The notes under the pieces are model-generated. The model ran no database searches. It worked only from the letters and a program-made list of their open reading frames with translations, and was not told where the DNA came from. From an uncultured Candidatus Saccharibacteria bacterium (lineage in GTDB: Bacteria > Patescibacteriota > Doudnabacteria > UBA920), in contig CAZPRQ010000001.1 of the NCBI GenBank assembly GCA_964589415.1, positions 11,368 to 55,489 on the forward strand: a DNA stretch of 44,122 nucleotides. Reading direction: 5' to 3'. Within the stretch, counting starts at the first letter, position 1. Each line of letters opens with the position of its first letter. Below, piece by piece: positions 1 through 34,628 of the stretch. The translations under genes and the position numbers were made by a program.

Positions 1-50
1 AAAATAAAAACCCTCCAAAATTCACAAAATAATTTGTGATCTTGGAGGGG
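1..50 (-). terminator. Intrinsic-terminator-like hairpin downstream of ORF 91..1068
   Basis: Outer stem CCCTCCAA (11-18) / TTGGAGGG (42-49), inner stem TCACAAA (22-28) / TTTGTGA (33-39). On the minus strand it is followed by TTTTTATTTT (1-10). Confidence 0.7.
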
Positions 51-90
51 TGGCAAAGCATCTTGCAAACGCTCCGCCGGATTGCCGCTA

Positions 91-1068
91 CTACTTCTTT
101 TTCTTATCGGCCGGAACCCCGCCGATACTAACGATGTAATCTGCACCGGCCTGGATGCGCCGCCAGTCTTTGTGTTCTAACAACGACCGGTAGGCGTAAG
201 CCATTATGCCCAGATCCATGCGGACGTCGTAATCATCAAAATCAAATTCGTTTTCCAGGACACGAGGTTTTTCCAGGTCCGCCATTTCTTGGCGTGCCCG
301 TTCCACAGCATCGAGGCACTGACCCGGACCGGCGACTTCAAACAACCTGCCCACCTGCTCGAAGGTGAAACCGCATTCGACGCGTAGAAACTTTCCGACT
401 TCCCTGGCGTAGTCCCTGCGGCGGTTTTCGCGTTCGCCCTCAGCCATCTTTATTCCGGCTTGAAATTCTTGGTCAAGTCGGTCCCGCTGGGCCCTTAGTT
501 CGGCTTCGTTGTTAGTTACTACCGCCTTACCATCAATATTTGTAATCTTGTCGACAATCTGGGTAATAACCCTTTCCTGTTCACGAACCCGTCGCCAATT
601 TCCGCCGTTCACTGTCCGAGGTGTTAGGTCAATACGCTCAGTGTGATTCAGGGTGCGGATTGCTAGCATGGACTCACCGTTTTTGAGAAACTTGCCGGAT
701 GAAACCATTTCTGGCCCGACAATGCTGCCGGCCGCATATTCCTTATGCGACTCAATGTGGTAACGCTCCTCTTGAACCACCAGGACCTGGTCTTTTGGGA
801 CACGTTTGTAAATCCCGACAGCCAATAGAAGTTCGGGCGGTGCATTTTCCACTAACTTTCCGCTGTCGCAGGAATGGTCACATACCGTGTACGTCGACGG
901 AATAGGGTGACCTTTACCTTTGACGAACTTTACGCTATAGTGCCGCCTTTGTTCGGCACATAACTTGTAGTGTTGGAAGCCTTTGTCATCAGGAACAAGG
1001 CAAACATCAAACCGGACGACTCCGGCTTGCCTGCGGATCTGCTCGACCCTGTAAGTCGTTGTAAACAT
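91..1068 (-). CDS. Hypothetical protein, 325 aa, no recognisable domain; central coiled-coil-like charged segment
   Basis: Long ORF with ATG start. AGGAGG (revcomp of 1081-1086) lies about 12 nt upstream. Visibly more GC-rich than the backbone. Confidence 0.75.
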   Translation of the reverse strand: MFTTTYRVEQIRRQAGVVRFDVCLVPDDKGFQHYKLCAEQRRHYSVKFVKGKGHPIPSTYTVCDHSCDSGKLVENAPPELLLAVGIYKRVPKDQVLVVQEERYHIESHKEYAAGSIVGPEMVSSGKFLKNGESMLAIRTLNHTERIDLTPRTVNGGNWRRVREQERVITQIVDKITNIDGKAVVTNNEAELRAQRDRLDQEFQAGIKMAEGERENRRRDYAREVGKFLRVECGFTFEQVGRLFEVAGPGQCLDAVERARQEMADLEKPRVLENEFDFDDYDVRMDLGIMAYAYRSLLEHKDWRRIQAGADYIVSIGGVPADKKKK

Positions 1069-1110
1069 ACTAACTAAAATTCCTCCTACTAAGATTTTAA
1101 AAACTTCTTC

Positions 1111-1175
1111 CCTTCCAAATTCACAAAATAATTTATGAACTTAGAAGGAATTGGCAGATGGTGCGAACATCTGCC
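1111..1175 (-). terminator. Two tandem hairpins downstream of ORF 1247..1915; the first is a paralog of hairpin 11-50
   Basis: 1111-1148 shares the core TTCACAAAATAATTT(G/A)TGA with 21-39 and has flanking CCTTC/GAAGG arms. Second hairpin is GGCAGATG (1153-1160) / CATCTGCC (1168-1175). On the minus strand, GTTTTT follows the first. Confidence 0.55.
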
Positions 1176-1246
1176 GGTATGAAACGAATGTATAATCGTG
1201 GCCTTCGCACAGCCAAGTGGATCCGTTGCTTGTACAGATCCTCTTA

Positions 1247-1915
1247 CTAACCTTCATCGATTTCTGCGTCAGAATCGGGTTCGTGCCTTCGGTTGTATTC
1301 TTCGAGCGTGCAAATGCGCTGAATTCGGTCTAACTTTTTGCACATCGCTACAATGCACGGGTTTCCCAATTGCCCACGACCCTTCCTTAAAGCCTGCTCG
1401 GCCAGATGATAGATCGCAGCAATCTCCAAGAAGAACAAGGTCTCGCCCTGCAACCACTTGAGGTCCTGTGTGAAGAAATAGTGACCTAGATCGGTCTTCC
1501 GGCCGAGGTTGATCTGCAAACGGTTGAGGCCATCGCTGTCACGACACTCACCGATTGAAGATCGAGTCTTGTCGTTGATGGCGGAAAAACGATGGACGCC
1601 GTGCTTGCGGAACTGCACGTTGGTCGCGACTGCAACCGATTCCACATACCACGACCACCGGGTCGTGCTTCCATAAGTGGAGAGTGAGCAATCCTGTTCA
1701 ATGCTCGGTATATGGAGCACGTCGGAATAAATCCGGCGCCACTCCAACCTCTCCTCCTTGCCTTTTCCAACCCTGCATATCATAAAGTTGGGCTTGGGGT
1801 CGTTCTCCGAGAAACTATGGTTGTCTCCCCAGTTAATAACAGCACTTAGGAGACGGTCACGGTCTCGCTCAGGAATTTCCTGAAGCGGGATCGTAGTACA
1901 AATAAGGTGGATCAC
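1247..1915 (-). CDS. Hypothetical protein, 222 aa from the GTG start, no recognisable domain
   Basis: The ORF track opens at TTG 1978 with no SD. GTG at 1915 is preceded by GGGGAGG plus a 5-nt spacer (revcomp of 1921-1930), so I take 1915 as the start. GC-rich like 91..1068. Confidence 0.7.
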   Translation of the reverse strand: MIHLICTTIPLQEIPERDRDRLLSAVINWGDNHSFSENDPKPNFMICRVGKGKEERLEWRRIYSDVLHIPSIEQDCSLSTYGSTTRWSWYVESVAVATNVQFRKHGVHRFSAINDKTRSSIGECRDSDGLNRLQINLGRKTDLGHYFFTQDLKWLQGETLFFLEIAAIYHLAEQALRKGRGQLGNPCIVAMCKKLDRIQRICTLEEYNRRHEPDSDAEIDEG

Positions 1916-2058
1916 TTTTTCCTCCCCTATATTCTTTTCCTCCTGCGAGGACAGAAACGACTGTGATTTTGGGGCCAATCGTTAACCCATGTGGACATTG
2001 GTTCGTCCTAAATAGTGACAAAAAATCACCACTTAGCGCAAACCAAATTTTACCTACA

Positions 2059-2087
2059 ATTATGCTACTTTTTAGCTATTTTGTCAA
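2059..2087 (-). promoter_or_regulatory. Sigma70-type promoter for the 1915..91 cassette
   Basis: On the minus strand: TTGACA (2087-2082), 17-nt spacer, CATAAT (2064-2059). Lies directly after the rpsI terminator. Confidence 0.6.
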
Positions 2088-2092
2088 TAGTC

Positions 2093-2122
2093 AAAAAAAA
2101 CCACCCATTTCTGGGTGGTTTT
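2093..2122 (-). terminator. Rho-independent terminator of the ribosomal protein operon (after rpsI)
   Basis: CCACCCA (2101-2107) / TGGGTGG (2112-2118) stem, flanked by A8 (2093-2100) and T4. On the minus strand the stem is followed by T8. Confidence 0.85.
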
Positions 2123-2206
2123 AATCTGTGCAATCTGTTCCCTATCTGTGCTTCTGTGGATACTAGCGTTTAGCCAATCCATTCGATAAGCTCAGGATGG
2201 TCCAAG

Positions 2207-2758
2207 TTAACGTTTGGCCCACTGAGGAGAGCGGCGGGCGCGCTTAAGGCCTGGCTTCTTTCTTTCTTTACGCCTGTCATCGCGTGTCAAAAATCCATTT
2301 TTCTTCAAAATTTTTCTAACATCATCGTTTAACTTGGAAAGGGCTGTGGCCAAACCGTGGCGGACAGCCTCTGCCTGGGAATGAATTCCGCCGCCGTTTA
2401 CATGGGCAACAAAATAAAAGTCCCCACCAAGTCCGGTAACATCAAAAGGCTTTAAAGCTTTGTCCTGGTCAAAATTAAAATAAAAATAGTTCTTAAAAGG
2501 CTTTTTGTTTATTACAATATCCCCTTTGCCGGAAAACAAGCGGACATTAGCCACGGAAGTTTTTCTGCGTCCGGTGGCAAATACGTACCTGCCTGCTGGT
2601 ACGGACACTTCCGCGACTTTGGGAACATCTTCGACAGCTTTAACATGAACCGCTTTATGAGCGGGCTTTTCCGCGGTTTCTTTCTTTACGCGCGGAGCTC
2701 TGGGCTTTTTGACCGGCTTCTCTGCCGCGGTCTTGGTTGTAGTAGTTTTAGTTGGCAT
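2207..2758 (-). CDS. rpsI: 30S ribosomal protein S9 with a ~55-aa Lys/Ala/Pro-rich N-terminal extension
   Basis: GRRKTSVANVRL...HVNGGGIHSQAEAVRHGLATAL...KKPGLKRARRSPQWAKR is a typical S9 core and C-terminus. Confidence 0.95.
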   Translation of the reverse strand: MPTKTTTTKTAAEKPVKKPRAPRVKKETAEKPAHKAVHVKAVEDVPKVAEVSVPAGRYVFATGRRKTSVANVRLFSGKGDIVINKKPFKNYFYFNFDQDKALKPFDVTGLGGDFYFVAHVNGGGIHSQAEAVRHGLATALSKLNDDVRKILKKNGFLTRDDRRKERKKPGLKRARRSPQWAKR

Positions 2759-4779: not shown

Positions 4780-5388
4780 TTATGTTCTGCTATAATGCTC
4801 AACTATTAGCTGAGTATTTATAATATTGCCTATCATATCTGGCGTTGGCTGAGTCAATACCTTGCCGGATAATTTTTGGGCATCCAGCTCTACCCACTCC
4901 TGAGTTTTAAAACTTTTAAGTTTTTCCTTAATTTTCTCCATATAAGCGCTTTTTTGCTTTAACGGTCTAACAGTTACTGTGTCGCCAACTTTAACCGTGT
5001 ACGAAGGTATGTCTACTTTTTTGCCATTTACTTCAAAAAATCCGTGACTCACCAACTGTCTGGACTGCGCGCGCGTTTCGGCAAAACCGAGCCTGAAAAC
5101 TATATTGTCGAGCCTCAACTCTAACAAACGAAGCAAGTTTTCACCGGTAACCCCAACTTGTTTTAAAGCGCGCTCAAAATAATTGGCAAACTGGCGTTCT
5201 TGTACGCCATAATTAATTTTCGCTTTTTGCTTTTCTCTTAGCTGTATGCCGTATTCCGAAAGCCTTACCCTGCTTTGCCCGTGCTGACCGGGAGCGTAAC
5301 TGCGTTTTTGAAGGACTTTGGCATCTTTAGTGGTAAATGCCATGCCTAGCCGGCGGGCTTTTTTCGATTTAGGGCCAGTGTATCTCAT
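4780..5388 (-). CDS. rpsD: 30S ribosomal protein S4
   Basis: MRYTGPKSKKARRLG...LEKQFANY-like segment...RLDNIVFRLGFAETRAQSRQLVSHGFFEVNGKKVDIPSY (S4 domain). Confidence 0.95.
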   Translation of the reverse strand: MRYTGPKSKKARRLGMAFTTKDAKVLQKRSYAPGQHGQSRVRLSEYGIQLREKQKAKINYGVQERQFANYFERALKQVGVTGENLLRLLELRLDNIVFRLGFAETRAQSRQLVSHGFFEVNGKKVDIPSYTVKVGDTVTVRPLKQKSAYMEKIKEKLKSFKTQEWVELDAQKLSGKVLTQPTPDMIGNIINTQLIVEHYSRT

Positions 5389-5526
5389 AGATTAACTAAT
5401 AATAATTCTCATCTAGTAAAAATAAAGTTTTCCCTCCGCAAGCCGCGGGGTATTGAAACCTGTATTAGCTCCTCGGCTCGCTTATCCCGCCATGGCGGGA
5501 TAGACTCGCCTACGTCGCGAATAAAA
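5389..5526 (-). promoter_or_regulatory. Structured rpsK-rpsD spacer (possible attenuator or autoregulatory leader)
   Basis: 20-nt perfect palindrome TATCCCGCCATGGCGGGATA (5483-5502). On the minus strand there is also a GC hairpin CCCCGCGGCTTGCGGAGGG followed by AAAACTTTATTTTT. Confidence 0.4.
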
Positions 5527-5994
5527 CTATACGCGTCTGGGTTTTTTGGGGCGTATACCGCCATGTGGAATGGGTGTTTGGTCTTTAATGGAAATAACGT
5601 TTAAACCACTTCCCTGCAGAGCCCTTACCGCGGACTCTCGTCCGCTGCCAATGCCCTTAATAAAAACATCAACTTCGGTCAAACCTCTCTCCTTTAGGCG
5701 CGCGAGAGTATCTTCCATGGTTTTTTGCCCCGCGTAGGGAGTAGATTTCTTAGAGCCTTTAAACCCAATTTTACCCGCGGAACTCCATAAAATAACATTA
5801 CCCGTAAGGTCGGTTACCGAAACTATGGTGTTGTTGTATGTGGAATTAATAAAAATTTTGCCTTTTGTAATTTTAGCTTTAGACTTCTTTTTCTTTGACT
5901 TGATTTTAGTGGCAACTTCAACAGAAGCTTCCGTCTTGGGAGCTTCTTCTGTTACTGCCGCTGTTAAGATTTGAGTTGTAGTTGTTTCTTCCAT
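5527..5994 (-). CDS. rpsK: 30S ribosomal protein S11 with a ~25-aa N-terminal extension
   Basis: GKIFINSTYNNTIVSVTDLTGNVILWSSAG...TPYAGQ...IKGIGSGRESAVRALQ...DQTPIPHGGIRPKKPRRV. Confidence 0.95.
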   Translation of the reverse strand: MEETTTTQILTAAVTEEAPKTEASVEVATKIKSKKKKSKAKITKGKIFINSTYNNTIVSVTDLTGNVILWSSAGKIGFKGSKKSTPYAGQKTMEDTLARLKERGLTEVDVFIKGIGSGRESAVRALQGSGLNVISIKDQTPIPHGGIRPKKPRRV

Positions 5995-6033
5995 ATTTTA
6001 TCCGCAAATTAATTGCTGATTGGTAAGCTGTGT

Positions 6034-6423
6034 CTAGGTTTTTTCCGCGGATGTCTTACGTCCACTGCCAGCCGTTTTTCTTACATTCCCTCTGCGCGTC
6101 CGGGAATTGGTTTTAGTGCGCTGTCCCCGTACCGGCAAACCCCGAATATGGCGAATCCCTCTATAAGCACCCATTTCTTTTAGCTGCTTAATGTTGAGCA
6201 GGATTTGCTGGCGCAGTTCGCCTTCTACCTTAAAATTCTTTTCTATATATTCACGAATTCTATTCAATTCTTCTTCGCTTAAGTCTTTGGTTCGCTTATC
6301 CGCGTTTATGCTTATCTCTTTAAGAATTTTTTTTGCCAAGGACAAGCCAATACCATAAATATACGGCAGGGCCGCTTCAATTCTTTTTTCGTTGGGGATA
6401 TTTACACCTGCGATTCTAGCCAT
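6034..6423 (-). CDS. rpsM: 30S ribosomal protein S13
   Basis: [26 protein letters not shown]...[26 protein letters not shown]. Confidence 0.95.
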
Positions 6424-6511
6424 ACTGTTAAGTTAAAAGTTTATCAAGTTATCAAGTCAAGGAAAGTTTATCAAGTAAGTATTTTTCGCCTACACCTTGA
6501 TAATTTATACA

Positions 6512-6625
6512 CTAGCCCTGTCTTTGCTTATGCTTTGGATTTTCACAAATTATATAAACTCGGCCAAATCGTTTGACTACTTTACATTTTTTACACATTG
6601 GTTTTACCGAAGATCTAACTTTCAT
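6512..6625 (-). CDS. rpmJ: 50S ribosomal protein L36 (37 aa; below the ORF-track cutoff)
   Basis: My translation of the minus strand gives [37 protein letters not shown]. This has the classic L36 Cys/His pattern and lies between infA and rpsM. Confidence 0.9.
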
Positions 6626-6692
6626 ATGTTTAAATAATTTGGCGGAAAGTATTCCGCGTCTTATAATAATTGAAATCTGGCGCTATTTTTAT

Positions 6693-6944
6693 CTACCTTA
6701 ACCTTCGAGTAATTCTACCTTTGCTTAGATCATACGGGGTCATTTCAATTAACACCCTATCACCCGGCAAAATACGTATCATGTTAATTTTCATTTTTCC
6801 TGCCAAATACCCCAAAACAAGCTGTCCGGAATCTAATTGGACGCGAAAAATAGCACTGGGTAAATTCTCTATGACTTTGCCCTCAAGTTCAATGCTATCT
6901 TTATTTTTTCCAGACTTCCCAAAGTCTTGCGTGCGGTGAGACAA
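6693..6944 (-). CDS. infA: Translation initiation factor IF-1 (start uncertain, apparent TTG)
   Basis: [64 protein letters not shown] is an S1-like IF-1 core. The only canonical in-frame start upstream of the core is TTG 6944, which has no SD. Confidence 0.88.
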
Positions 6945-7082: not shown

Positions 7083-8768
7083 TTATTCTAACTTTTTAAT
7101 TACTATTTTGCCGGCAAACCATGGAAAATTATCCTGCCATGAAGGAGTGAGAGTAATGTCTATTGTCTGAATTTCCGGCCTGGAACCGAGCATTTCCTGC
7201 ACATCTGTTTTAGATTTGCCTCTTAATTGCCTGTTCATTTCTGAAATGTCAACGTTATGAATTATTTTACCTTCAAAATGAGCGCTAAACACAGCTTGCT
7301 GGTTTAAAAAATCCACAGACTTTAATTTCAATGACATTTGATTGTCATTGCTAAAATCAAGCAACTTATTTGTTGAAAGAGTACGCTCAATACGCCCCTT
7401 TATTAATTCTTTCATTTGACCGCCATTAAACGCCATTGCCGTAAATTTCACCTTTAAATGGGCTTCGAAACTGGGACTTTCGCTGCCCGCGGGCTTGTCC
7501 GTTGTAAAGCTTAATGGTTCCAATATATAAGTTTTATCTAAAATGACTAAATTTTTAGCTTTGGCCTGCTCCCGGTACTGGCTAACTAATTTCTCCGCTA
7601 AGGAATTTTGCGCGTTTGTTATATCTAGTTCTGAAATTAGGGACAAATAGCGCGAGGTGCCGCCCGTTATGGCGCTTTCGGTTTTAGCATACAAAAATTG
7701 GGGCTTGCTTCCAAAAACCTGATTGGTAATTTCCATTCGGGTACCGGCTGGTACGTTAAAACTTTCCCCACCAGCCGAGGCTATTACCTCAACCGCGGGA
7801 CTTAAGCTTTCGGGGTCAATTTCTTTTGTCGCTTCATTTTTATACTCCGTAGGCTTAATGCCTGTTAAATCCTCGGCGAGCACATAAGTTTTTCCCCCAA
7901 TAGCCAGGGAAGTGGTGTTAGCCTTTAAATTTAAAGGCGCGCGAGTAAAATTGTATATTACAACTTTTCCGTAAGCTTTGTTTCCAACCTCCTTCTTCCC
8001 TTGGCTTTGAAAACGCTCAGTAATTTCCAAAGTTTCACTTATAAAGGTTCCGGGCAATGCCATGCGAGTCTCGTTTTCCGGCTGAGTAATTTGACTGGAT
8101 ACCAATATTTCCGGCCAATCCCTGGTAATAACCTCTGTTTTCGCGTGTACAACAACTTCCGCCCTTGGCAAAATAACAAACATCGCGAGTAAGACTAAAA
8201 TTAGCGACAGTGCTACTAAGGCAGTGAGAACGGTGCTTAACTTCCTACCTGATTTTTTAATGGGCTCGGGATTAGAATTTTTACCACCACTAACGGCACG
8301 GGTGGCTGGATCTGTCGGCCAATCAATAAATTCTTCCTTTTGGACCACCGGAGCGCGGGCGATACTTTTTTCAGTTTTCGACGTAAGTGCCGGCTTGGTA
8401 GTTACAACAGCTGAATTTAAATTTCGCTTAACTACAGTTCCGGACGACGTTAAATTTACGGGCCTTGAAATTTTAACGTCAGAAAACGCCCCTGACACAT
8501 GGCCTTTGGGCAAATATTTTAAACCGAACCCCGCCTCTTTAGCATACATTTGACCCTTCTCATCCATGGTCAAAATAAAAACCTCTTTTTTTAAAAGTTC
8601 AGCCTGTTTTTTTAGAAGTCTTAAATTTATGGAGTCTGAAAATAGCTGGCACTTTCTTGGGCAAACCAAAACCACCTGGCTAGCCTTTTCACGCTTAAGC
8701 CTGGTAACAATACGGTTGACATCGTCCTCTAAATTTATGTAAATACTTGGTAGCCTAGACATACTCAT
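7083..8768 (-). CDS. Hypothetical single-pass membrane protein, 561 aa
   Basis: Long ORF with ATG start. Cytoplasmic N-terminal domain, one hydrophobic helix (LSTVLTALVALSLILVLLAMFVIL), then a large extracytoplasmic beta-rich region. No motif I can name. Confidence 0.75.
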   Translation of the reverse strand: MSMSRLPSIYINLEDDVNRIVTRLKREKASQVVLVCPRKCQLFSDSINLRLLKKQAELLKKEVFILTMDEKGQMYAKEAGFGLKYLPKGHVSGAFSDVKISRPVNLTSSGTVVKRNLNSAVVTTKPALTSKTEKSIARAPVVQKEEFIDWPTDPATRAVSGGKNSNPEPIKKSGRKLSTVLTALVALSLILVLLAMFVILPRAEVVVHAKTEVITRDWPEILVSSQITQPENETRMALPGTFISETLEITERFQSQGKKEVGNKAYGKVVIYNFTRAPLNLKANTTSLAIGGKTYVLAEDLTGIKPTEYKNEATKEIDPESLSPAVEVIASAGGESFNVPAGTRMEITNQVFGSKPQFLYAKTESAITGGTSRYLSLISELDITNAQNSLAEKLVSQYREQAKAKNLVILDKTYILEPLSFTTDKPAGSESPSFEAHLKVKFTAMAFNGGQMKELIKGRIERTLSTNKLLDFSNDNQMSLKLKSVDFLNQQAVFSAHFEGKIIHNVDISEMNRQLRGKSKTDVQEMLGSRPEIQTIDITLTPSWQDNFPWFAGKIVIKKLE

Positions 8769-8839: not shown

Positions 8840-10006
8840 CTATAACAGCCCTTTACTTTTCAGCCTTTTATCGAAAGATATAATTTTACTGTTTTCCACC
8901 TGGGGTTGGTTAAACGGGTCCACACCTCTTAAAACGGATGAATACACAGCAAAAAGCTGCCAAAACGCGGTAAATGGTCCAATCTCTTGGGCATTAAAAC
9001 CGTTAATTTCTACATGTGCAAAAGGAATACCGGCAATGCGCGCGTCCTCCATAGTGCCATCTGCCTCAAAATGCATGCTGTCTGCCAAACGAATCTGGTC
9101 CATATTTTTTAGCTGGCCGGACTTAATCCACACCTCATGAACCGGATTCGGGTAAGTAATCATAGTGTCATGTACAAATGAGTCTGTAGTTACAAAGCAG
9201 CCGCATATATTTTTTGGGCCGCCAAAAAAACGCTGATTTGTGTGATGCTGGCTTTCCGGCCCTTCGTGCGCGAAATAGGTTTGCCCCCTGCCTGACTTTC
9301 CAAAACTTTCATGGCACAGCTGGACAATTAACGCGGACATGGGAAAAAGGCTGTGCGAATAAAAAGGCATAAAAACATCGGTGTAACCTTGCTGTTCAAG
9401 CTGCCAAAATACGCTTGCCGCGTGCCAAGCCGGATTATCCTTTCCAAATTGCGCGTACAATTGTGCCGCGCCGTCGTATATGCCCTCAGCGTCCAAACCG
9501 GCTATCATGGCTGGCAATAAAGCCACCTCCGTTAGACCGGAAAAACGTCCGCCAATTGGCGGATGGTTTATAATTTTTCCGCCTAGCTTTTCCACGTACG
9601 CGCGCAAACTGCTATTGGTACCGGTTATGCACAAAATATTGTACCCGCTAAATTGGGAAAGGGCTTCAAAGACCGTTATATTTTCACCGGATTTTGAAAT
9701 TACAATAACTAAAGTTTCCTTTTCCGGCAAACTTAATTTTAACTTGTAAATATAATCCGGATCCGTAGTGCTTAAAAAATATACCTGCTTTACGGCCTGG
9801 CTATTTAAGGCGGAATAATACCCGTAAAAGCTGGTAACACTTCCACCATGTCCAATTATTAAAATATTTTTATACCCGGCGTAGCCCTTTGCCACATCTT
9901 CAATTAATTTAAAATCCGGCACATGGTTTAAAAACCCAACTTCTTGGGGTAAACTGCGGGGATCCATTTCTTCCCACTTAGGACAATTGTGGAATTGTAG
10001 TTTCAT
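8840..10006 (-). CDS. pgi: Glucose-6-phosphate isomerase (short form)
   Basis: SIS-type VIVISKSGENITV, PGI signature 1-like PPIGGRFSGLTEVALLPA, and signature 2-like GVDPFNQPQVENSK. Confidence 0.85.
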   Translation of the reverse strand: MKLQFHNCPKWEEMDPRSLPQEVGFLNHVPDFKLIEDVAKGYAGYKNILIIGHGGSVTSFYGYYSALNSQAVKQVYFLSTTDPDYIYKLKLSLPEKETLVIVISKSGENITVFEALSQFSGYNILCITGTNSSLRAYVEKLGGKIINHPPIGGRFSGLTEVALLPAMIAGLDAEGIYDGAAQLYAQFGKDNPAWHAASVFWQLEQQGYTDVFMPFYSHSLFPMSALIVQLCHESFGKSGRGQTYFAHEGPESQHHTNQRFFGGPKNICGCFVTTDSFVHDTMITYPNPVHEVWIKSGQLKNMDQIRLADSMHFEADGTMEDARIAGIPFAHVEINGFNAQEIGPFTAFWQLFAVYSSVLRGVDPFNQPQVENSKIISFDKRLKSKGLL

Positions 10007-10012
10007 ATAGCT

Positions 10013-10447
10013 TTAATTTTTTGTCTCAGGGAGCAGGTTACAAGCAGGGGTTTTTCTCCCCCTTTTTAAGGGGGAGTTAGAGGGGGTAAGTTCTTTGATT
10101 GTTTTATCGATTTCAAACATTACTCCTTCAATGTTATTCATAATATCAATATTACCAAATCTTACCAAATTTAATCCAAGCGATTTTAAAAATTTTTCTC
10201 TTAAATTATCATACTCAATTGCTTTAGAGCTAAAATGCGAATCTCCATCAGCCTCAAGCACCAATTTGAGTTTAGGACAATAAAAATCAACTATATAATT
10301 CCCAATACTAACCTGCCTTCTAAATTTATAGCCAAGTAATTGATTCTTGCGCAAATAATCCCAAAGGACTATTTCAGGCTGTGATCTGTGGTTCCTCAAA
10401 AACTTTCTTTGCTCAGTTTTTGCTTTGGTATTAAATATTTGGGTCAT
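10013..10447 (-). CDS. DUF559 (Vsr-like endonuclease fold) domain protein
   Basis: PEIVLWDYLRKNQLLGYKFRRQVSIGNYIVDFYCPKLKLVLEADGDSHF...LGLNLVRFGNIDI is a typical DUF559 core. The last ~25 codons read through the left flanking repeat. Confidence 0.85.
   Translation of the reverse strand: MTQIFNTKAKTEQRKFLRNHRSQPEIVLWDYLRKNQLLGYKFRRQVSIGNYIVDFYCPKLKLVLEADGDSHFSSKAIEYDNLREKFLKSLGLNLVRFGNIDIMNNIEGVMFEIDKTIKELTPSNSPLKRGRKTPACNLLPETKN
10056..10087. repeat. Palindromic element family A, left copy (inside the 3' end of the DUF559 ORF)
   Basis: CTCCCCCTTTTTAAGGGGGAGTTAGAGGGGGT resembles the reverse complement of 10449-10482. Confidence 0.7.
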
Positions 10448-27922: not shown

Positions 27923-30900
27923 TTATTGGCCGAGCAGCAAACCAAGCAAGGTTTCGCGCTTTTTGAAAGCCGCGAACAGACCGGTTAAAGCAGCGGCAAA
28001 TATGCCGGCAGTCATGGCATCAGACCCGGTTTTGGGGGCTACGTAAGCGCCCAAAACTTGCGGGGTGTTTACGCGCACCGTTACGGTATTGCCATAAGTG
28101 TTAGTCATTACATAGCTTAGGTTTTGCGCCAAATAATATTTAACGCGAACCTTAAAGCTCTTGGTTACGGTACTGCCGGACGGAATAGTTACGGCAGGAT
28201 AAGTTATAACGTTTCCGGAAATCTGGCCTCCGCCGTTGTCCACAATATCCGCGTAAGGCAACACCTGCGACAAATCGTCGGTTATTACAAAGCTATTGGC
28301 CGGAGTATTACCGGAATTGGTCACTGTAAGTGTGTAAGTAATATAGTCCTCGCGGGCAGCCGGGGTGCTTTGGGCGTCAATATTTTTAGTATCGTTCCAA
28401 GCTTTCTTGCTATAGGTAAGGCTTACATTTCCACCGGCCACATTGGTGGTGAAAACCCAAGCGTCATCTTGGACTTCGCTTACGCTATCGCCGCTAACTC
28501 TGGCAATATTTTGAATGCCGTTAGAAACGCTTCCGTTTACGCGAACTTGGAAGGTTAAGGTGCGGCTTTGTCCGGCCATAAGGCTGCCAACATAATAATT
28601 CTGGTAATCGTTCCCTGAAACATAAGACAACCCTGTCGGCAAATAGTCGGTAACACGAACATTGTTTACAACCTGGTTGCCGGAATTGGTAACCACAATT
28701 TGGAATTCAACGGTATCGTTTCCATTTACCGTAACTGAGTTTGTAAACGAACCGTTTTGGCTTCGAACAGACTTCGTTATAGCCAGCTGGCGGAATTCAT
28801 TGGCAGGAACCGTGCTACCTTGGTTGGTTATGTAATACCAGTTATTGCAGGAATTATTTACGCAAGTATTTACATTGTTAACCGTATTGTTATTTCCGTT
28901 AATATTGGTGTTGTTAGTAACGGTGTTATTGTTGTTGCCGGTTACCGTTGTGGTATTGTTATTGTTATTGCAGGAATTGGTGCTGTTGTTGCAATTGCCA
29001 CCCGTAGAAGTTTCCGCTGGAATATTTACCGTGGCAGTCGCAAGTGTAGTGTTACACTCCGCGTCTATCATGTAGAAGCTGTGGCTTGAACCCAAGGCCA
29101 AACCGGTAACAGTAAATGAGCCGGTGTTATTTCCCGTCGCTATAACATTGCCCGTGGAATTCTGGGAAATTTTAATTTGATGACTGCCCGTAGAAGTCCA
29201 GTTTAAGGTGGCATTGTAAGTTGAACCGGATTTGACCACATTGCTGACATTTAAAGCAAAGTTAGAGTTTGGCACGCATACAGTGCTTGTGGTTTTGCGC
29301 AGGACAAAAGTGGACATTAATCCGCCGCAACTGGACAAATCATAGAGCTTAAAAACATAATCCTTGTTAGGATCAAAATTATTAAACTGCTTGCTGCCCG
29401 ACTGATTAACAGAGGCAACAAATACGACTTCCTGACCGTTGTCGGGATTTATATAACTTACTTTAACAGGATTATTTCCGGAAAAAGACCAGGAAATGTT
29501 TGTGCTGTACTTGCCACCAAATAATTCGGAAATCGCCGAAGCGGAAATAACACCATTGGTGTTTGGCACGCATACCGGTGCTGGGTTTACAACGACCACA
29601 GTCGGGCAATTGGCAGTCTGAGTTCCGCGCGTAACTCTTACATTATAAGTACCGGCTTGGGAAAAAGCGGCGGAATAGGCGGAAGAATTGTTGCCAACAT
29701 TGGTGTTGTTTACATTCCAGCTATAAGCGCCTTCCCCGCCTTGGGCGGTAAAATTAACCACCTGTCCGGTTTGGACATTGGTAGCCGAAGCCGAGCAAGT
29801 TAAAGTTGGCGTCTGAGCAGGCTGAGTAACAGCCACAGCCGGACAATTTACGGACTGGCTGCCGCGAGTTACCGTGGCAACATAGGAACCGGCCTGATTA
29901 AAAGTAGCTGTGTAATTTGAGGAATTTCCGCTAACCGAAGCATTGTTTACTTTCCAGCTAAACGCGCCCTCGCCGCCGGCAGCGGTAAAGCTAACGGATT
30001 GTCCGGCAAGAATTGAACTGGCAGAAGCTGAACAAGTAAGAGGGTTAGGCTGAACAGTGGTTTGAGAAACATTTACATTACAATAAACAGTTTGGCCGCC
30101 GCTATGAACCGCTACAGGATAATTACCGGGATTGGTAAAGCGAGTAGAAAAACTTGAACCGGTGCCAACCTGGGGATTTCCGCCGGTAATTGTCCACTGG
30201 TAAGCGCCTTCGCCGCCGGTTGCGGTTAAGTTCACAAATTGATTAACTTGCGCGTTTTGGTTTAAAGGAGAACATACCAGGGTTGCCGGAACACTAACAG
30301 TAACTCCGCAACTGGCGCTTTGAGTGCCGCTAATAACCCTGACTTCATAACTGCCCCTTGAAGCATAGGAAGTGGCAAAATCTCTGCCGCTGCCAATTAC
30401 TTTTGTGGAACCTATGGCGGTCCAATTATAAACTCCGGTACCGCCGGAAGCGGTGAAATTTACGGAAGTATAAGGCTCAGTAGTACGGTTTTGGGGGCTG
30501 CAAATCAAAGTTTGCACAACAGGAGTTGGGTCAACCGGTTCACTGCAATTTTTTACCCTAAAAGGCACAGTTCGTGATACACCGTTTATTTTTGCGGTCT
30601 TTGTCCAAGACCCTATTTGGCTTTCATTTTGATTATGGTTAAATACTCCGCCGGGACCTGACCAGGAACCATTGCTTCCAACAGTATGTCCATAATAGGT
30701 ATCCACTTCCAAAGTAGGATTGTTATTAAAAGAAGAACTCCATAAAATTTGCTTACCAATTAACCCGGCCGTGGCATTGCTTACGGTAAAAACAGGCACG
30801 TTCGTATTGGCACAAATATCCGTCATGCTAATGGATAAATTAAAACTTTCCTCGGAAGGAGTTGTGGGGCTGCCGCAATTTAAAGCAGCTCCGGCCGGCA

Positions 30901-31912
30901 TCCAGGATTCGCTAAGCAATTTAACCATATAACTTTGTCTGCCTTCGTTGTATACGCGGAAAGACTGCGACTGGCCGCCTTGGGCGGGATTTACTTCCCA
31001 TAAAGTAAAGCGATAAGGCTTTTCCGGCTGTATCCATCCTACGGTCTGGTTGCCGTTGTCTCCGCTGGCAAAAACGGTGTCGTTGCCGTAGTAATTGTTG
31101 CTGTTTAAATCCGGATCGGAAACGGTTACCAACACATCATTTACATTGGCGGTATTCCAAACAACAGTACCGTTGTACAAACACTCTGCGGTAGGACTGC
31201 CTAGCTGGGTGCTTATGTTATAGGAAGGATTAACCGGGGTTTGGCCTTGGGTCTTCACTACGCGCACTTTAAAAACTACAAATTTGCTTTGATCAAAACA
31301 GCCTGGCAAGTCGTTTAAAAACGCTTTTACGGCAGGCTCGCCGTTATGGGAAGTTACACTAACCGAACCGGCGCCATTGTCTGCCTGTCCAAACCAGTTC
31401 TGTAAATGGGCGGAGCCGGGAACTATTTCCAATTTTTCGTCGGCTGCCGTACGTATGGCAAAAGATCCGTTCACTGTTCCGGCATTGCTAGAAGTAACGG
31501 TGGAACCAATAACATGCTCAGGTTCGGCGGTGTCGTTTACGGTAACCACGGCATTAACGCCGCGGGCCGCGTCCGGACTGCCCGCCGGCTGGCCATTGTG
31601 TATATACACGCGCACTTCAAATTCGTCTCCACTTGTAGCATTCCAACCGCCATAAAGCTGATCGAAACTGGTTGGGTACTGGCCGTTTTTACCGGCCCAA
31701 ATTGCGGGCCAGTCTTTACATGCCTCATTGGTCAAAGTAACCGGATAAGGGTTTAATGTGGGGTTCTGGGGGGCGTTGGCGCAAGTAGCCGGAGTGTCGG
31801 CATAAAGCGCTTGGTAGGCGCGCGGGGCGCCAAATAAAGCCACCACGGCAAAAACCGCAACCGCAGTCGCGACTTTCCAATTCATGGTGACCTTTGAGAT
31901 AAATTTATTCAT
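27923..31912 (-). CDS. Giant secreted surface protein (1329 aa): tandem Cys-bounded Ig-like repeats, Asn/Cys-rich tract, DUF11-type repeats, C-terminal sortase sorting signal
   Basis: N-terminal signal/TM segment. Four ~75-aa repeats of the form L(I/V/T)CS...GG(T/E)G.Y.W...C. DUF11-like TVTNSGN..A..V.V.D.LP. C-terminus is APKTG plus a hydrophobic helix plus KKRE. Confidence 0.88.
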   Translation of the reverse strand: MNKFISKVTMNWKVATAVAVFAVVALFGAPRAYQALYADTPATCANAPQNPTLNPYPVTLTNEACKDWPAIWAGKNGQYPTSFDQLYGGWNATSGDEFEVRVYIHNGQPAGSPDAARGVNAVVTVNDTAEPEHVIGSTVTSSNAGTVNGSFAIRTAADEKLEIVPGSAHLQNWFGQADNGAGSVSVTSHNGEPAVKAFLNDLPGCFDQSKFVVFKVRVVKTQGQTPVNPSYNISTQLGSPTAECLYNGTVVWNTANVNDVLVTVSDPDLNSNNYYGNDTVFASGDNGNQTVGWIQPEKPYRFTLWEVNPAQGGQSQSFRVYNEGRQSYMVKLLSESWMPAGAALNCGSPTTPSEESFNLSISMTDICANTNVPVFTVSNATAGLIGKQILWSSSFNNNPTLEVDTYYGHTVGSNGSWSGPGGVFNHNQNESQIGSWTKTAKINGVSRTVPFRVKNCSEPVDPTPVVQTLICSPQNRTTEPYTSVNFTASGGTGVYNWTAIGSTKVIGSGRDFATSYASRGSYEVRVISGTQSASCGVTVSVPATLVCSPLNQNAQVNQFVNLTATGGEGAYQWTITGGNPQVGTGSSFSTRFTNPGNYPVAVHSGGQTVYCNVNVSQTTVQPNPLTCSASASSILAGQSVSFTAAGGEGAFSWKVNNASVSGNSSNYTATFNQAGSYVATVTRGSQSVNCPAVAVTQPAQTPTLTCSASATNVQTGQVVNFTAQGGEGAYSWNVNNTNVGNNSSAYSAAFSQAGTYNVRVTRGTQTANCPTVVVVNPAPVCVPNTNGVISASAISELFGGKYSTNISWSFSGNNPVKVSYINPDNGQEVVFVASVNQSGSKQFNNFDPNKDYVFKLYDLSSCGGLMSTFVLRKTTSTVCVPNSNFALNVSNVVKSGSTYNATLNWTSTGSHQIKISQNSTGNVIATGNNTGSFTVTGLALGSSHSFYMIDAECNTTLATATVNIPAETSTGGNCNNSTNSCNNNNNTTTVTGNNNNTVTNNTNINGNNNTVNNVNTCVNNSCNNWYYITNQGSTVPANEFRQLAITKSVRSQNGSFTNSVTVNGNDTVEFQIVVTNSGNQVVNNVRVTDYLPTGLSYVSGNDYQNYYVGSLMAGQSRTLTFQVRVNGSVSNGIQNIARVSGDSVSEVQDDAWVFTTNVAGGNVSLTYSKKAWNDTKNIDAQSTPAAREDYITYTLTVTNSGNTPANSFVITDDLSQVLPYADIVDNGGGQISGNVITYPAVTIPSGSTVTKSFKVRVKYYLAQNLSYVMTNTYGNTVTVRVNTPQVLGAYVAPKTGSDAMTAGIFAAALTGLFAAFKKRETLLGLLLGQ

Positions 31913-32343
31913 ACGCGTGTATATAATTAATATATTAATTAAATTAAATGATGATTAAATTAATGATGATTGAAGTGCAAAAGACAAAATTTACCTTTTG
32001 CAACAAAACCACCAGGGGAAGAATTTAGAATTTAGGATTTAGAATCTAGGATAAAGGCAACCTGCAGTACTTGATAACTTATGATTATACCCAATTTTAA
32101 TTATTTTGTCAATTACTTTAAATAATATATGGCTTAAATAAAGGATATTTTATTTTAAACCCCTTTATTCATAGTCATTTTTGATTTTTGTGGGCTTTTT
32201 CGCACTATCCTACCTAAATTGTTTAATAATGGCGATATTGTAGTTTGCCCATTTATGGGCCATAAAACTACATTTAAAGTCATTTTTTCCTTTCAATCCT
32301 AATTTACTATACAGAATTTCCTGCTATATCGCTATATCAAATT

Positions 32344-32411: not shown

Positions 32412-34628
32412 CTATGGGTTCCAATTCCCTGTTCTGTCCCCATCCAACTTAATGAGGGCGCCCTTACCACCACCCCTTGTTAGCAGGAAAATGGCCAGGC
32501 CTGCGCCAACAGCAGCCAAAATCCACAACCACTTCTTACTTCCTTTCTTTTTGATTGTGAACTGGCGATCGCAGCGGACTTGGCAGGTTTTGCCGTTAGA
32601 GAGTCTGGACTCGCCAACCAAGGTAATGCTATATGTCCCTGGTTCAAAATCCAGCGTGTTAATGGTAAGCCGATCATCCGTAAGGTCAGCACGGGAGTAT
32701 CGCTTACCCCCAAGGGTGACGGTATAGTCCACCCACTCCGCCCGAAGGTTATCGAGCGCGAAAGTGAATGTAGCCGTCTCGTTAATCTTGAGACTCTTGG
32801 GCCCCTGCACATTGCAATTGGGACACACTTCAGGAATCTCAAAAGTGTTTGCCTGACCGTCGCCGGGGCAGGTAAACAACACGTTCCCATGCTTGTCTAC
32901 GCCCTGAACGGTAATAGCGTACCGAACTCCGGGGATAATCTCCTTGCCAGGTCGGAAAGTGAACGGGGAATGTAAACTCTCCCCCACCTTACGACCGTCA
33001 ATGAAGTAAACGAGCTTTGAAAGCCGACCGGCTTCGTCTAGGTAGTTGGTCACTACTTCAACTTGGCCGTTCTCCAGCACACTAACCCGCACACTATCAC
33101 ACGCAAGCGCTGGCGGAATGATCGGTGGCGGCGGTGGGGGTAGACGCTTCACTAGCGGCACACTGCACTTCACAGTGTAAGTGGTCGGGCTTCCTTTTGC
33201 CCTAACAGTCCCAGTGTAAACCAAGTCTGTCTGGGTTTCGGAAACTTGCGACCCCCGAAGGGTAAGTTCGAAGTTGTTACCGACAACACTGCCCCCAAAC
33301 ATCCACTCAGATTTTAAAACTTCAACATCCTGGTCCATGATGGGTTTATATTGCCCAATCTGTTCTTCAGACGTAAAGTCTTTTACCGAAGCTTGGATTG
33401 TTTGGCAGACAGCACTGACAGCCTCAGTACGAAATACCGTACCTTTAGTCTGTACCACATTGGCATTCCCGCCACACTCGAGACCGTTCTCCACCAAAAG
33501 CGGGATTTCGAGTAGCATGAGGCGCAAGACCTCAAACCGCTCTTGTCCCGACTTCAAGTTAAGACGATAACCCGCACGGGTAACACCACCGCGGCCGCTG
33601 CCTTGTTTCCAAATTAGGCTCGGCTTGTCGACCTTGGCGAGATTGAGCACAAATGGCCAGTTGTACTTCATGGCCAAGACAAGTCGCCGCTTCCACGCAT
33701 TTTTGATTTCCATTTCCTGGGAAGCATGCTCCCCAAGGATTTGGATTTCATCAATGTGTGTCAGCACCCGCTGAAAGTCCTTCCGCATTTCGCTTATGTC
33801 TGCGAAACGGTTACCAGCCGGCAAAGTCGCCCACTCAGTAAAAGGTTTAAAATCTTTAAAGAATGGGTTTGCGAGGTCAGTTTCGGGTTGGAGATCTTCT
33901 GGATAAGCGTATTTGGGATCCGCCTTTATCGCGTACGCCTTTGGGTACATGCCCGTTATGAGATGCACCAGATCTTCCGGCGACGTGACTTCCTTTTCTC
34001 GCCGTTCGAACTCTGCCATCTGCTCAGGGCTCAAATCTTTTTCCATCGAATCCCAAACCGTTAGCAAGCGTGGGGCGTCGAACACTTCATCACGACGGTC
34101 ATTCCGAACACTTCCTTGTCCCGGAACTTCGGGCGTCGATCGCACCGAGGTATCCGTAGGTTGAGAGGCGGAAGAATTACGCAGTCGCTGAATTGCTTCG
34201 TCGGCACGCAACCGCGCCTCGCGGGCTTCGCGTTCCAGACGTTGAATTTCCGTCTCAGAGTTCTGGTTTTGGGCCAGAACCACTGTTTCGGAAAGTGGCG
34301 TCGCCGTTGGAATACGAGAAAGCCTTAACCGGCTAGGTGTTGTGTAGAGGTCAGAGTTAACTTCGTTGTAAGCCAGGAGCACTGGCTCCTCAAGTTCCAA
34401 TGTCACCGGTAAATCCACATGAATATAGGGTAAGTGGAATTTTTCAGTAACCGTAAGAACCGTAGGCTTGTTGGCCACCACCATCAACGGAAACATCACT
34501 CCGATGGTGGGTATAGAGCTGGAAGTCGGTGGGATGAGTTGCACCGGCAACGCGGCGTTGGCCGTCGCTGTGGTGAGTAAAGCGAAAACGCAAATGAGGG
34601 CCACTAGGGCCCGGTTCGGGGTCGTCAT
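32412..34628 (-). CDS. Hypothetical surface protein, 738 aa, with signal peptide and C-terminal TM anchor; GC-rich
   Basis: AAGGAGAA SD 5 nt before the ATG. Signal peptide ALVALICVFALLTTATANA. Contains a coiled-coil segment, a PPPPPPIIPP linker, Ig-like C-terminal modules and the TM helix WLWILAAVGAGLAIFLL. No domain I can name. Confidence 0.8.
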   Translation of the reverse strand: MTTPNRALVALICVFALLTTATANAALPVQLIPPTSSSIPTIGVMFPLMVVANKPTVLTVTEKFHLPYIHVDLPVTLELEEPVLLAYNEVNSDLYTTPSRLRLSRIPTATPLSETVVLAQNQNSETEIQRLEREAREARLRADEAIQRLRNSSASQPTDTSVRSTPEVPGQGSVRNDRRDEVFDAPRLLTVWDSMEKDLSPEQMAEFERREKEVTSPEDLVHLITGMYPKAYAIKADPKYAYPEDLQPETDLANPFFKDFKPFTEWATLPAGNRFADISEMRKDFQRVLTHIDEIQILGEHASQEMEIKNAWKRRLVLAMKYNWPFVLNLAKVDKPSLIWKQGSGRGGVTRAGYRLNLKSGQERFEVLRLMLLEIPLLVENGLECGGNANVVQTKGTVFRTEAVSAVCQTIQASVKDFTSEEQIGQYKPIMDQDVEVLKSEWMFGGSVVGNNFELTLRGSQVSETQTDLVYTGTVRAKGSPTTYTVKCSVPLVKRLPPPPPPIIPPALACDSVRVSVLENGQVEVVTNYLDEAGRLSKLVYFIDGRKVGESLHSPFTFRPGKEIIPGVRYAITVQGVDKHGNVLFTCPGDGQANTFEIPEVCPNCNVQGPKSLKINETATFTFALDNLRAEWVDYTVTLGGKRYSRADLTDDRLTINTLDFEPGTYSITLVGESRLSNGKTCQVRCDRQFTIKKKGSKKWLWILAAVGAGLAIFLLTRGGGKGALIKLDGDRTGNWNP

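Follow-up and report, generated by a model that had tools for sequence, protein, structure and literature searches.

Two orphan genes follow the rplM-rpsI operon

The 44,122-nucleotide (nt) stretch of contig CAZPRQ010000001.1 analysed here, from an uncultured Candidatus Saccharibacteria bacterium and called the window throughout, carries on its minus strand a ribosomal cluster confirmed by Pfam (rpsM, rpsK, rpsD, rpoA, rplQ, rplM and rpsI; the latter matches Ribosomal_S9 with E=8e-42). On the 3' side of rpsI, the same strand continues with two open reading frames (ORFs), ORF B (1247-1915) and then ORF A (91-1068), whose organization and relatives are the subject of this study. An identical 222-amino-acid (aa) B product is present in the public gene calls (P0008). 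Read in the direction of transcription, the segment holds the following features (bp, base pairs; UTR, untranslated region):

2097-2122, minus strand: intrinsic terminator of the rplM-rpsI operon with an 11-bp stem, a 4-nt loop and a T-run
2059-2087, minus strand: sigma-70-type promoter of module B, TTGACA-17-CATAAT, 11/12 match
1916-2052, minus strand: structured 5' leader of B, 137 nt untranslated; putative transcription start near 2052, from the promoter position
1247-1915, minus strand: ORF B, 222 aa, GTG start 6 nt after GGGGAGG
1153-1175, minus strand: first 3'-UTR hairpin of B, GGCAGAUG-UUCGCAC-CAUCUGCC, kept 3' of an 83%-identical B gene (locus L053)
1109-1150, minus strand: hairpin D1, copy 1, with a 19-bp AU-rich stem; the T-run begins 5 nt past the stem
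1069-1100, minus strand: remnant of the A-family leader with ribosome-binding site GGAGG, from alignment to loci L001, L002 and L003
91-1068, minus strand: ORF A, 325 aa, ATG start, orphan family
52-78, minus strand: first 3'-UTR hairpin of A, a 12-bp stem in both the minimum free energy (MFE) and the centroid fold
1-49, minus strand: hairpin D1, copy 2 (11-49), with an adjoining U-run (1-10); predicted terminator closing the whole unit

We compared this segment with loci carrying homologues of A (L001, L002 and L003) or of B (L007/8, L010, L011, L012, L048, L053, L054 and L056). Only three sites on both strands of the 44 kb scored at least 11/12 as promoters (32112, 7008 and 2087), and a promoter of the B type could be aligned in every B locus that reaches that far (L053, L054, L007, L010, L011, L012 and L056). 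Among the B loci, similarity sets in at the promoter and not before; for the window compared to L053 and L054, this point lies at about 2092, immediately 5' of the -35 hexamer. The rplM-rpsI terminator thereby forms the apparent upstream border of the inserted DNA, in which module B (about 1090-2092) is present in complete form. The spacer between B and A is 178 nt long and contains several hairpins; no minus-strand promoter-like site was found within 1069-1246. The 3' hairpin regions fold with z-scores of -5.9 and -6.4, the latter for the region of D1 copy 2. Past the window edge, an extra 190 nt taken from locus L006 hold only a convergent terminator, located at 1945-1995 of L006.

Thus, the strong rpsI terminator, the near-consensus promoter behind it and the self-contained character of the segment, with its own promoter and terminators, as put forward in a preliminary description of this DNA, were all borne out. 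The hairpin that it placed after each gene exists 3' of both; however, the two are not independent, but 85%-identical copies of one 39-nt element.

A and B deviate in composition from their surroundings

The same description had called the segment GC-rich and compositionally distinct, and windowed GC content, tetranucleotide usage and GC content at third codon positions (GC3) all deviate accordingly. GC content of positions 1-2000 is 0.50 compared to a window mean of 0.431 (500-nt windows, standard deviation 0.045), and the tetranucleotide distance of this part (z=+3.2) makes it the second strongest outlier of the window behind 32.5-34.5 kb. GC3 reaches 0.563 in A and 0.622 in B compared to 0.439±0.046 in the 31 other genes of the window, among which the ribosomal-protein genes range from 0.43 to 0.50. 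The excess therefore reflects a shift at synonymous sites and not an amino-acid effect alone. It is also displayed by the homologues: B genes have a GC3 of 0.63-0.71 versus 0.34-0.62 in their neighbours (0.71 versus 0.35 in L007, 0.69 versus 0.34 in L011), and A genes of 0.55-0.58 versus 0.44-0.54. Synonymous divergence (dS) among family members runs from 0.4 to more than 1. Selection on mRNA structure was rejected as the source of the high GC3, as shuffling of synonymous codons in three B genes gave z-scores of -1.3 to +0.07, like the controls. The excess would reflect either repeated movement from a GC-richer pool or synonymous sites that are under some selection.

Two further genes of the window stand out in composition. 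The strongest tetranucleotide outlier is a 738-aa ORF (32412-34628, minus strand) with an N-terminal signal peptide, no Pfam match, a GC content of 0.52 and a GC3 of 0.56, a second compositionally foreign gene that is unrelated to A and B. The lowest GC content of the window (0.33) belongs to a gene for a 144-aa DUF559/Vsr-like endonuclease (10013-10447, minus strand), which sits between alaS and a 388-aa orphan gene and looks like a low-GC insertion.

Both proteins belong to rare families without known relatives

The preliminary description could assign neither ORF to a family, and this still holds: the A and B products of the window had no match in Pfam, NCBIfam, PHROGs or PADLOC, and sequence-profile searches of the PDB found nothing for either. 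Pfam also remained blank for 25 A and 11 B family members, for which PADLOC 2.0 gave isolated noise only (E>=0.004; one of the 25 A and one of the 11 B members). Foldseek found no match to the PDB at E<=1e-3 for A or B, nor to BFVD for A. Taken together, profile and structure searches yielded no confident housekeeping match for A or B. Values of dN/dS between 0.08 and 0.28 across the families (0.09 for A compared to L001) indicate that A and B are real genes under purifying selection.

The AlphaFold models of both proteins were of usable quality. For A (predicted local distance difference test, pLDDT, 80.6), the predicted layout is an N-terminal beta-rich domain that carries a Cys37/His42/Cys63/Cys67 cluster, a long coiled-coil helix (188-230) and a three-helix domain resembling a helix-turn-helix (HTH; 236-266), followed by an acidic disordered linker and a conserved AGADYIVSIGGVPADKKKK tail at the C-terminus. 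Within the family, Cys37, Cys63 and Cys67 are nearly invariant and His42 is kept in most members. Conserved motifs are N..GK and the helical segment GF....Q...L....AGPGQ...AVE.A, for which hints of an HTH type were non-significant. Based on the Cys/His/Cys/Cys cluster, the coiled coil, the HTH-like domain and the basic tail, A would most likely be a zinc-dependent nucleic-acid-binding or regulatory protein, an assignment in which we have low confidence.

B was modelled with a pLDDT of 73.6 and a predicted template modelling score (pTM) of 0.70. The predicted fold consists of an N-terminal ferredoxin-like beta-alpha-beta-beta unit, further strands and a long C-terminal helical hairpin; the homologues are 39-83% identical, and invariant polar residues include H3, E58, R60, R61, R103, R109 and E123. 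Foldseek matches of B to seryl-tRNA synthetase, CYTH/TTM, START and ACT/PII folds all had E>0.01 and TM scores below 0.35 and were not used. An assignment of B as an HUH/RAYT-type protein or a 2H phosphoesterase was dismissed, since the HUH+Y motif and the two HxT/S motifs are absent and no Tyr is invariant. Nucleic-acid binding by A or B may be guessed at.

Both families are exceedingly small. A word-indexed search of 5.8 billion proteins returned seven A and nine B proteins, the latter rising to 11 by profile search, and 26 A-family proteins emerged when 1.84 billion representatives were searched exhaustively with an HMMER profile. The ten members that we looked up are all singleton clusters, each on one contig (about 15 billion proteins). 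Among 185,579 GTDB species genomes, with one genome per species, there was no relative; a match for A in a metagenome-assembled Neisseriaceae genome turned out to be a chance match of 39 residues inside a PpiD-like ORF. Likewise, scans of IMG/VR and tblastn searches of INPHARED and PLSDB revealed no relatives, and a phage or plasmid origin was set aside with all three negative. The 44-kb window contains neither a tRNA gene nor any Rfam family at the gathering score. An island linked to a tRNA was also discarded, as the window has no tRNA and, of the other loci, L007 alone has a neighbouring one (tRNA-Ile, which follows the 16S gene).

A and B occur separately and in changing contexts

We examined 12 independent homologue loci, and A and B are not neighbours in any of them. 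The sole other contig with both genes, L006, encodes products identical to those of the window and seems to come from the same strain. The neighbourhoods of the homologues are diverse, and among the homologue loci neither gene is conserved at the rpsI position, in keeping with the accessory placement proposed in the preliminary description. A follows an NAD synthase gene and a PaaX-like gene in L001 and an RNase H gene in L002 and L003. B lies between a 16S rRNA-tRNA-Ile locus and enolase in L007 and L008, after CTP synthase in L010, after a 2H RNA ligase gene with or without an intervening NUDIX gene in L011 and L012, next to the gene for a 1478-aa HD protein in L056 and after an orphan ORF in L053. 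The latter ORF resembles an integrase by eye, which Pfam does not confirm.

L007 and L011 have B genes of 80% identity that stand in different contexts, which favours movement. In L053, with its 83%-identical B gene, the 3' UTR matches the window through the D1 terminator and then diverges. L011 and L012, in which the B genes are 65% identical, share the 2H-ligase neighbour (71% identical), which favours residence. In L002 (1588-1992) and L003 (3544-4275), RNase H lies directly upstream of an A gene whose product is about 35-47% identical to window A. The presence of RNase H and 2H (2'-5' RNA ligase-like) genes upstream may be due to synteny, or it may indicate that the families are functionally connected with RNA metabolism. 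In L007, the B homologue is located about 400 nt downstream of the 16S rRNA gene (5224-6827) and tRNA-Ile(GAT) (7536-7608); as enolase follows and no 23S gene does, the rRNA operon is unlinked there.

These findings bear on two explanations. According to the first, A and B form a functional two-gene accessory system, such as a toxin-immunity, toxin-antitoxin or anti-phage defence pair, that is co-transcribed from the promoter at 2087. The layout in the window would fit: both genes lie on the same strand, 178 nt apart, behind one strong promoter and with none in between, and they share a terminator element and a deviant composition. In addition, HepT/MNT and SocA_Panacea genes lie 2-6 kb away from the A homologue of L001. 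However, the partner is never adjacent in the 12 loci, in other loci each family comes with a promoter and leader of its own beside neighbours that are mostly housekeeping genes, and PADLOC produced nothing above isolated noise for all 36 members, none of which has a toxin or antitoxin domain. We consider such a pair a remote prospect. The two-gene cassette of the preliminary description was accordingly abandoned; with the failed co-occurrence test and no domain match or PADLOC model, its suggestion of a defence or toxin-immunity pair is left without positive evidence.

According to the second explanation, A and B are lineage-specific, vertically inherited and highly expressed cellular genes of a bacterial clade that has been poorly sampled, with GC3 shaped by codon selection for expression and leaders that are ordinary autoregulatory or stabilising 5' UTRs, as in ribosomal-protein operons. 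Core genes as neighbours (rpsI in the window, 16S-tRNA-Ile and enolase in L007, CTP synthase in L010), consensus promoters, strong purifying selection and the synteny kept in L011/L012 and in L002/L003 would all be expected. On the other hand, vertical inheritance sits poorly with the lack of any relative among the GTDB species representatives and with a membership made up of singletons. Moreover, the ribosomal-protein genes of the same window do not exceed a GC3 of 0.50, and the context changes even between B genes of 76-83% identity. We therefore regard vertical inheritance as rather unlikely.

B genes are preceded by a structured leader

The B leader folds with an MFE of -43.7 kcal/mol (z=-3.6). 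Its core of about 85 nt is composed of helix P1, a conserved loop in which UGGCC is invariant, a UUYCU tract, helix P2 and a purine-rich Shine-Dalgarno (SD) sequence. In the window, the elements are placed as follows:

1998-2046, minus strand: P0, a long hairpin of 19 bp between promoter and core, specific to the subclade of the window, L053 and L054
1957-1982, minus strand: P1, GAYGRYUG paired with CAGYCRUU
1938-1951, minus strand: P2, a short hairpin of variable stem sequence
1921-1927, minus strand: SD sequence GGGGAGG, purine-rich, the potential pairing partner of the anti-SD tract UUUCU

Helices are maintained while their sequences change. By eye, the P0 stem is rewritten among the copies of the window, L053 and L054. 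In P1, a C-G pair is replaced by U-A in L010 and L048, and an A-U pair by G-U in L056. The P2 stem reads CCCGA/UCGGG, CCCAA/UUGGG, CCCU/AGGG or CCUC/GAGG depending on the locus, and L056, whose B gene is the most distant (41% identical), has kept the core with a P2 wholly rewritten to CCGCAA/UUGCGG. Across eight sequences, standard pairs occupy 92% of the cells of P1 and P2 compared to 27-47% with slid partners. Changes are compensatory at three pairs, one in P1 and two in P2. This pattern points to a structured cis-regulatory leader with covarying helices.

RNAalifold favours another fold, in which the 5' arm of P1 is paired by an upstream GGGYUG and the UUYCU tract pairs with the SD sequence (96% paired). 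This SD-sequestering fold is compatible with all leader sequences. As the two folds are mutually exclusive, the leader has the layout of a translational switch. A pseudoknot between UGGCC of the P1 loop and a segment past P2 was rejected, since upon inspection the pairing is not conserved in the subclade of the window or in L011.

With Rfam 15, the leader of the window had no match at the gathering score, and region 1-2300 gave only chance-level matches at E<=1. A degenerate leader pattern was found at 40 loci of a metagenome collection. Two of these are true leaders, both in front of B genes, and the other 38 were judged to be chance occurrences because the rest of the leader is missing; none of the viral contigs with the pattern carry the leader remainder or a B gene. 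The leader thus appears to be an RNA motif that is unmatched in Rfam 15 and exclusive to B genes among the scanned collections.

The 3' UTRs of two B homologues that are 56% identical to each other, L010 (8640-8760) and L011 (3575-3670), have a two-hairpin arrangement in common that is unlike the D1 module of the window, GGGCCAGU...ACUGGCCC followed by CUCUCACC...GGUGAGAG. Its first arm could pair with ACUGGCC, an invariant sequence of the 5' leader to which it is complementary.

Could the leader instead act as a small RNA that partners with protein B, in an RNA-protein system laid out like retron, IS110 bridge-RNA or omega-RNA loci? The leader is found with B genes exclusively, the N-terminus of B is ferredoxin-like (beta-alpha-beta-beta), and between loci the leader is, by eye and with identity not computed, less variable than the protein. 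However, there is no variable guide-like segment, as the variable parts are covarying stem positions. The leader also runs straight into the SD sequence and start codon, and B has no signature of a nuclease, reverse transcriptase or recombinase. An RNA partner of this kind is hardly credible.

ORF A has lost its leader and lies between two D1 copies

Elsewhere, the leader of the A family consists of a stem-loop followed by ACGCUUGCC-AAAA-GGCAAGC, and its 3' arm varies among three loci with pairing kept (by eye, uncounted). All homologues have a TTGACA-17-(TG)TATAAT promoter and a family-specific leader. Window A is similar to the leaders of L001, L002 and L003 only over the last 30 nt or so before its ATG. 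It lacks the promoter and the leader hairpins of its family and is truncated on its 5' side.

A is bracketed by direct copies of D1 at 1110-1148 and 11-49 (39 nt, 85% identical). The D1 core pattern occurs twice in the window compared to 0.02 occurrences expected by chance. D1 recurs 3' of B in L053 and within the 5' leader of L056, whose B gene is 41% identical, and is therefore part of the B module. It was found nowhere else in the 400 kb of fetched loci and nowhere in IMG/VR. When the copies are compared by eye, changes on one side of the stem are compensated on the other. The T-run is offset from the stem in copy 1, and a U-run directly adjoins it in copy 2; copy 1, between B and A, is probably a leaky terminator or a processing hairpin. 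D1 as an attC site or an abundant repeat of the repetitive extragenic palindromic type was rejected, as it has no core sites (the stem terminates in CCTTC...GAAGG) and is restricted to the vicinity of B genes.

The position of A between the two copies could have arisen by recombination at D1 or by duplication of a terminator. A more far-reaching version holds that D1 is a recombination site, that A was captured as a promoterless cassette and that B modules serve as small gene-acquiring expression platforms, similar in operation to an integron platform but not integrons themselves. Direct D1 copies around a gene without its native promoter and leader, D1-like hairpins confined to the vicinity of B genes in three lineages (in the 3' UTR or 5' leader) and a stem held by compensatory changes are what such a process might leave behind. 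However, there is only one instance, with no recombinase in the vicinity and ribosomal genes as the nearest ORFs. The stem ends have no attC-type RYYYAAC/GTTRRRY boxes, and D1 is absent from IMG/VR. In addition, copy 2 is an ordinary intrinsic terminator, and duplication of a terminator by illegitimate recombination would look alike. Capture at D1 is therefore very unlikely. An integron integrase or attI was not found on the rpsI side, nor up to the window end at D1 copy 2 and in the 190 nt that L006 adds.

Two single-gene expression units may have been juxtaposed

Taken together, we lean towards the view that A and B are two unrelated, rare, accessory single-gene expression units that spread horizontally and came to be juxtaposed at the 3' end of the rplM-rpsI operon. 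A unit of either family normally consists of a strong sigma-70 promoter, a family-specific structured 5' leader, the coding sequence and one or more hairpin terminators. In the window, A would be transcribed from the B promoter at 2087 by read-through of D1 copy 1; the offset T-run of copy 1 and the adjoining U-run of copy 2 suggest read-through at the former and termination at the latter. Translation of B may be tuned by its leader through the competition of P1 with the fold that pairs the UUYCU tract with the SD purines. The most economical trigger would be the B protein itself. B is, with low confidence, probably autoregulated in this way and would then be an RNA-binding protein.

Several observations weigh against this model of two mobile units. 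B retains the 2H RNA ligase gene as a neighbour in L011/L012, and A retains RNase H in L002/L003; such synteny speaks for prolonged vertical inheritance in part of the lineages, and the GC3 excess could stem from selection instead of transfer. As the exhaustive profile search covered family A only, family B may exceed 11 members. The anti-SD helix exhibits one-sided changes only, and pairing between a pyrimidine tract and an SD sequence arises easily by chance. Transcription start, read-through and SD sequestration have each been deduced from sequence, and the guesses at the functions of A and B go back to motif patterns and non-significant HTH-type matches.

In its boldest form, the model would turn the B module into a compact unit of expression that moves horizontally, with a leader that represents a new riboregulator class (two exclusive folds, SD sequestration and a response to B or to a ligand), with D1 as a site where genes such as A are captured and expressed, and with A and B as new folds; we give this combination little credence.

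If the model of juxtaposed units is true, tiny accessory genes would spread in small-genome soil bacteria as ready-made units of promoter, leader, gene and terminator, and such units would drop in behind highly transcribed core operons. The segment also yields an RNA motif backed by covariation and unmatched in Rfam 15, and two protein families without Pfam or PDB relatives. Puzzling in composition is a gene family that maintains a GC3 close to 0.7 although its hosts have a GC3 of 0.35. The locus also serves as a warning that a compact, GC-deviant gene pair should not be called a defence or toxin-antitoxin system without a co-occurrence test.

Other features of the window

The promoter at 32084-32112 (minus strand) matches the sigma-70 consensus at 12/12 positions and precedes the gene for a 1329-aa DUF11/PKD surface protein (27923-31912). 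RpsI (2207-2758, minus strand) has an N-terminal extension of about 60 residues rich in Lys, Thr, Ala and Pro, with the S9 domain starting at residue 63. Between the ribosomal cluster and alaS, two minus-strand ORFs (7083-8768, 561 aa, and 8840-10006, 388 aa) have no Pfam match at E<=1e-5. A sortase, the giant DUF11/PKD surface protein, a short alanyl-tRNA synthetase and small gene sets in the window suggest a CPR/Patescibacteria-like organism that has a Gram-positive-type envelope.

Comparison with known systems

A conserved extension of the rplM-rpsI operon does not describe A and B, whose homologues are located elsewhere and match no housekeeping family. Type II toxin-antitoxin or defence cassettes are similarly made of two small genes on the same strand, with one promoter, a deviant composition and core genes as neighbours. 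However, A and B do not co-occur, have no such domains and are atypical in size (222 and 325 aa) and architecture. With integron cassettes, the locus shares a promoterless ORF (A), an imperfect-palindrome hairpin on both sides of it and a presumed external promoter. In contrast, D1 lacks the R'' and R' core sites, there are only two units, the upstream one of which has its own promoter and leader, and no integrase was seen on the rpsI side or within 190 nt past the window edge.

The leader of B resembles the autoregulatory leaders of ribosomal-protein genes and translational riboswitches in that it is specific for a gene family, covaries and can adopt exclusive folds, one of which would occlude the SD sequence. 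It differs in matching no Rfam family and in preceding an orphan gene.

Phage morons are independent units with their own promoter and terminator and a deviant GC content that reside in prophage genomes (PMC3594210). A and B are likewise single genes with their own promoter and terminator, although for A the promoter is seen only in the homologues; their GC content deviates from that of their neighbours, and they are spread patchily over differing contexts. Unlike morons, they are chromosomal, flanked by rpsI, rplM, rplQ and rpoA, and have no relatives in IMG/VR, INPHARED or, in the case of A, BFVD. In addition, both families carry long, conserved and structured leaders, which lie outside the definition of a moron.

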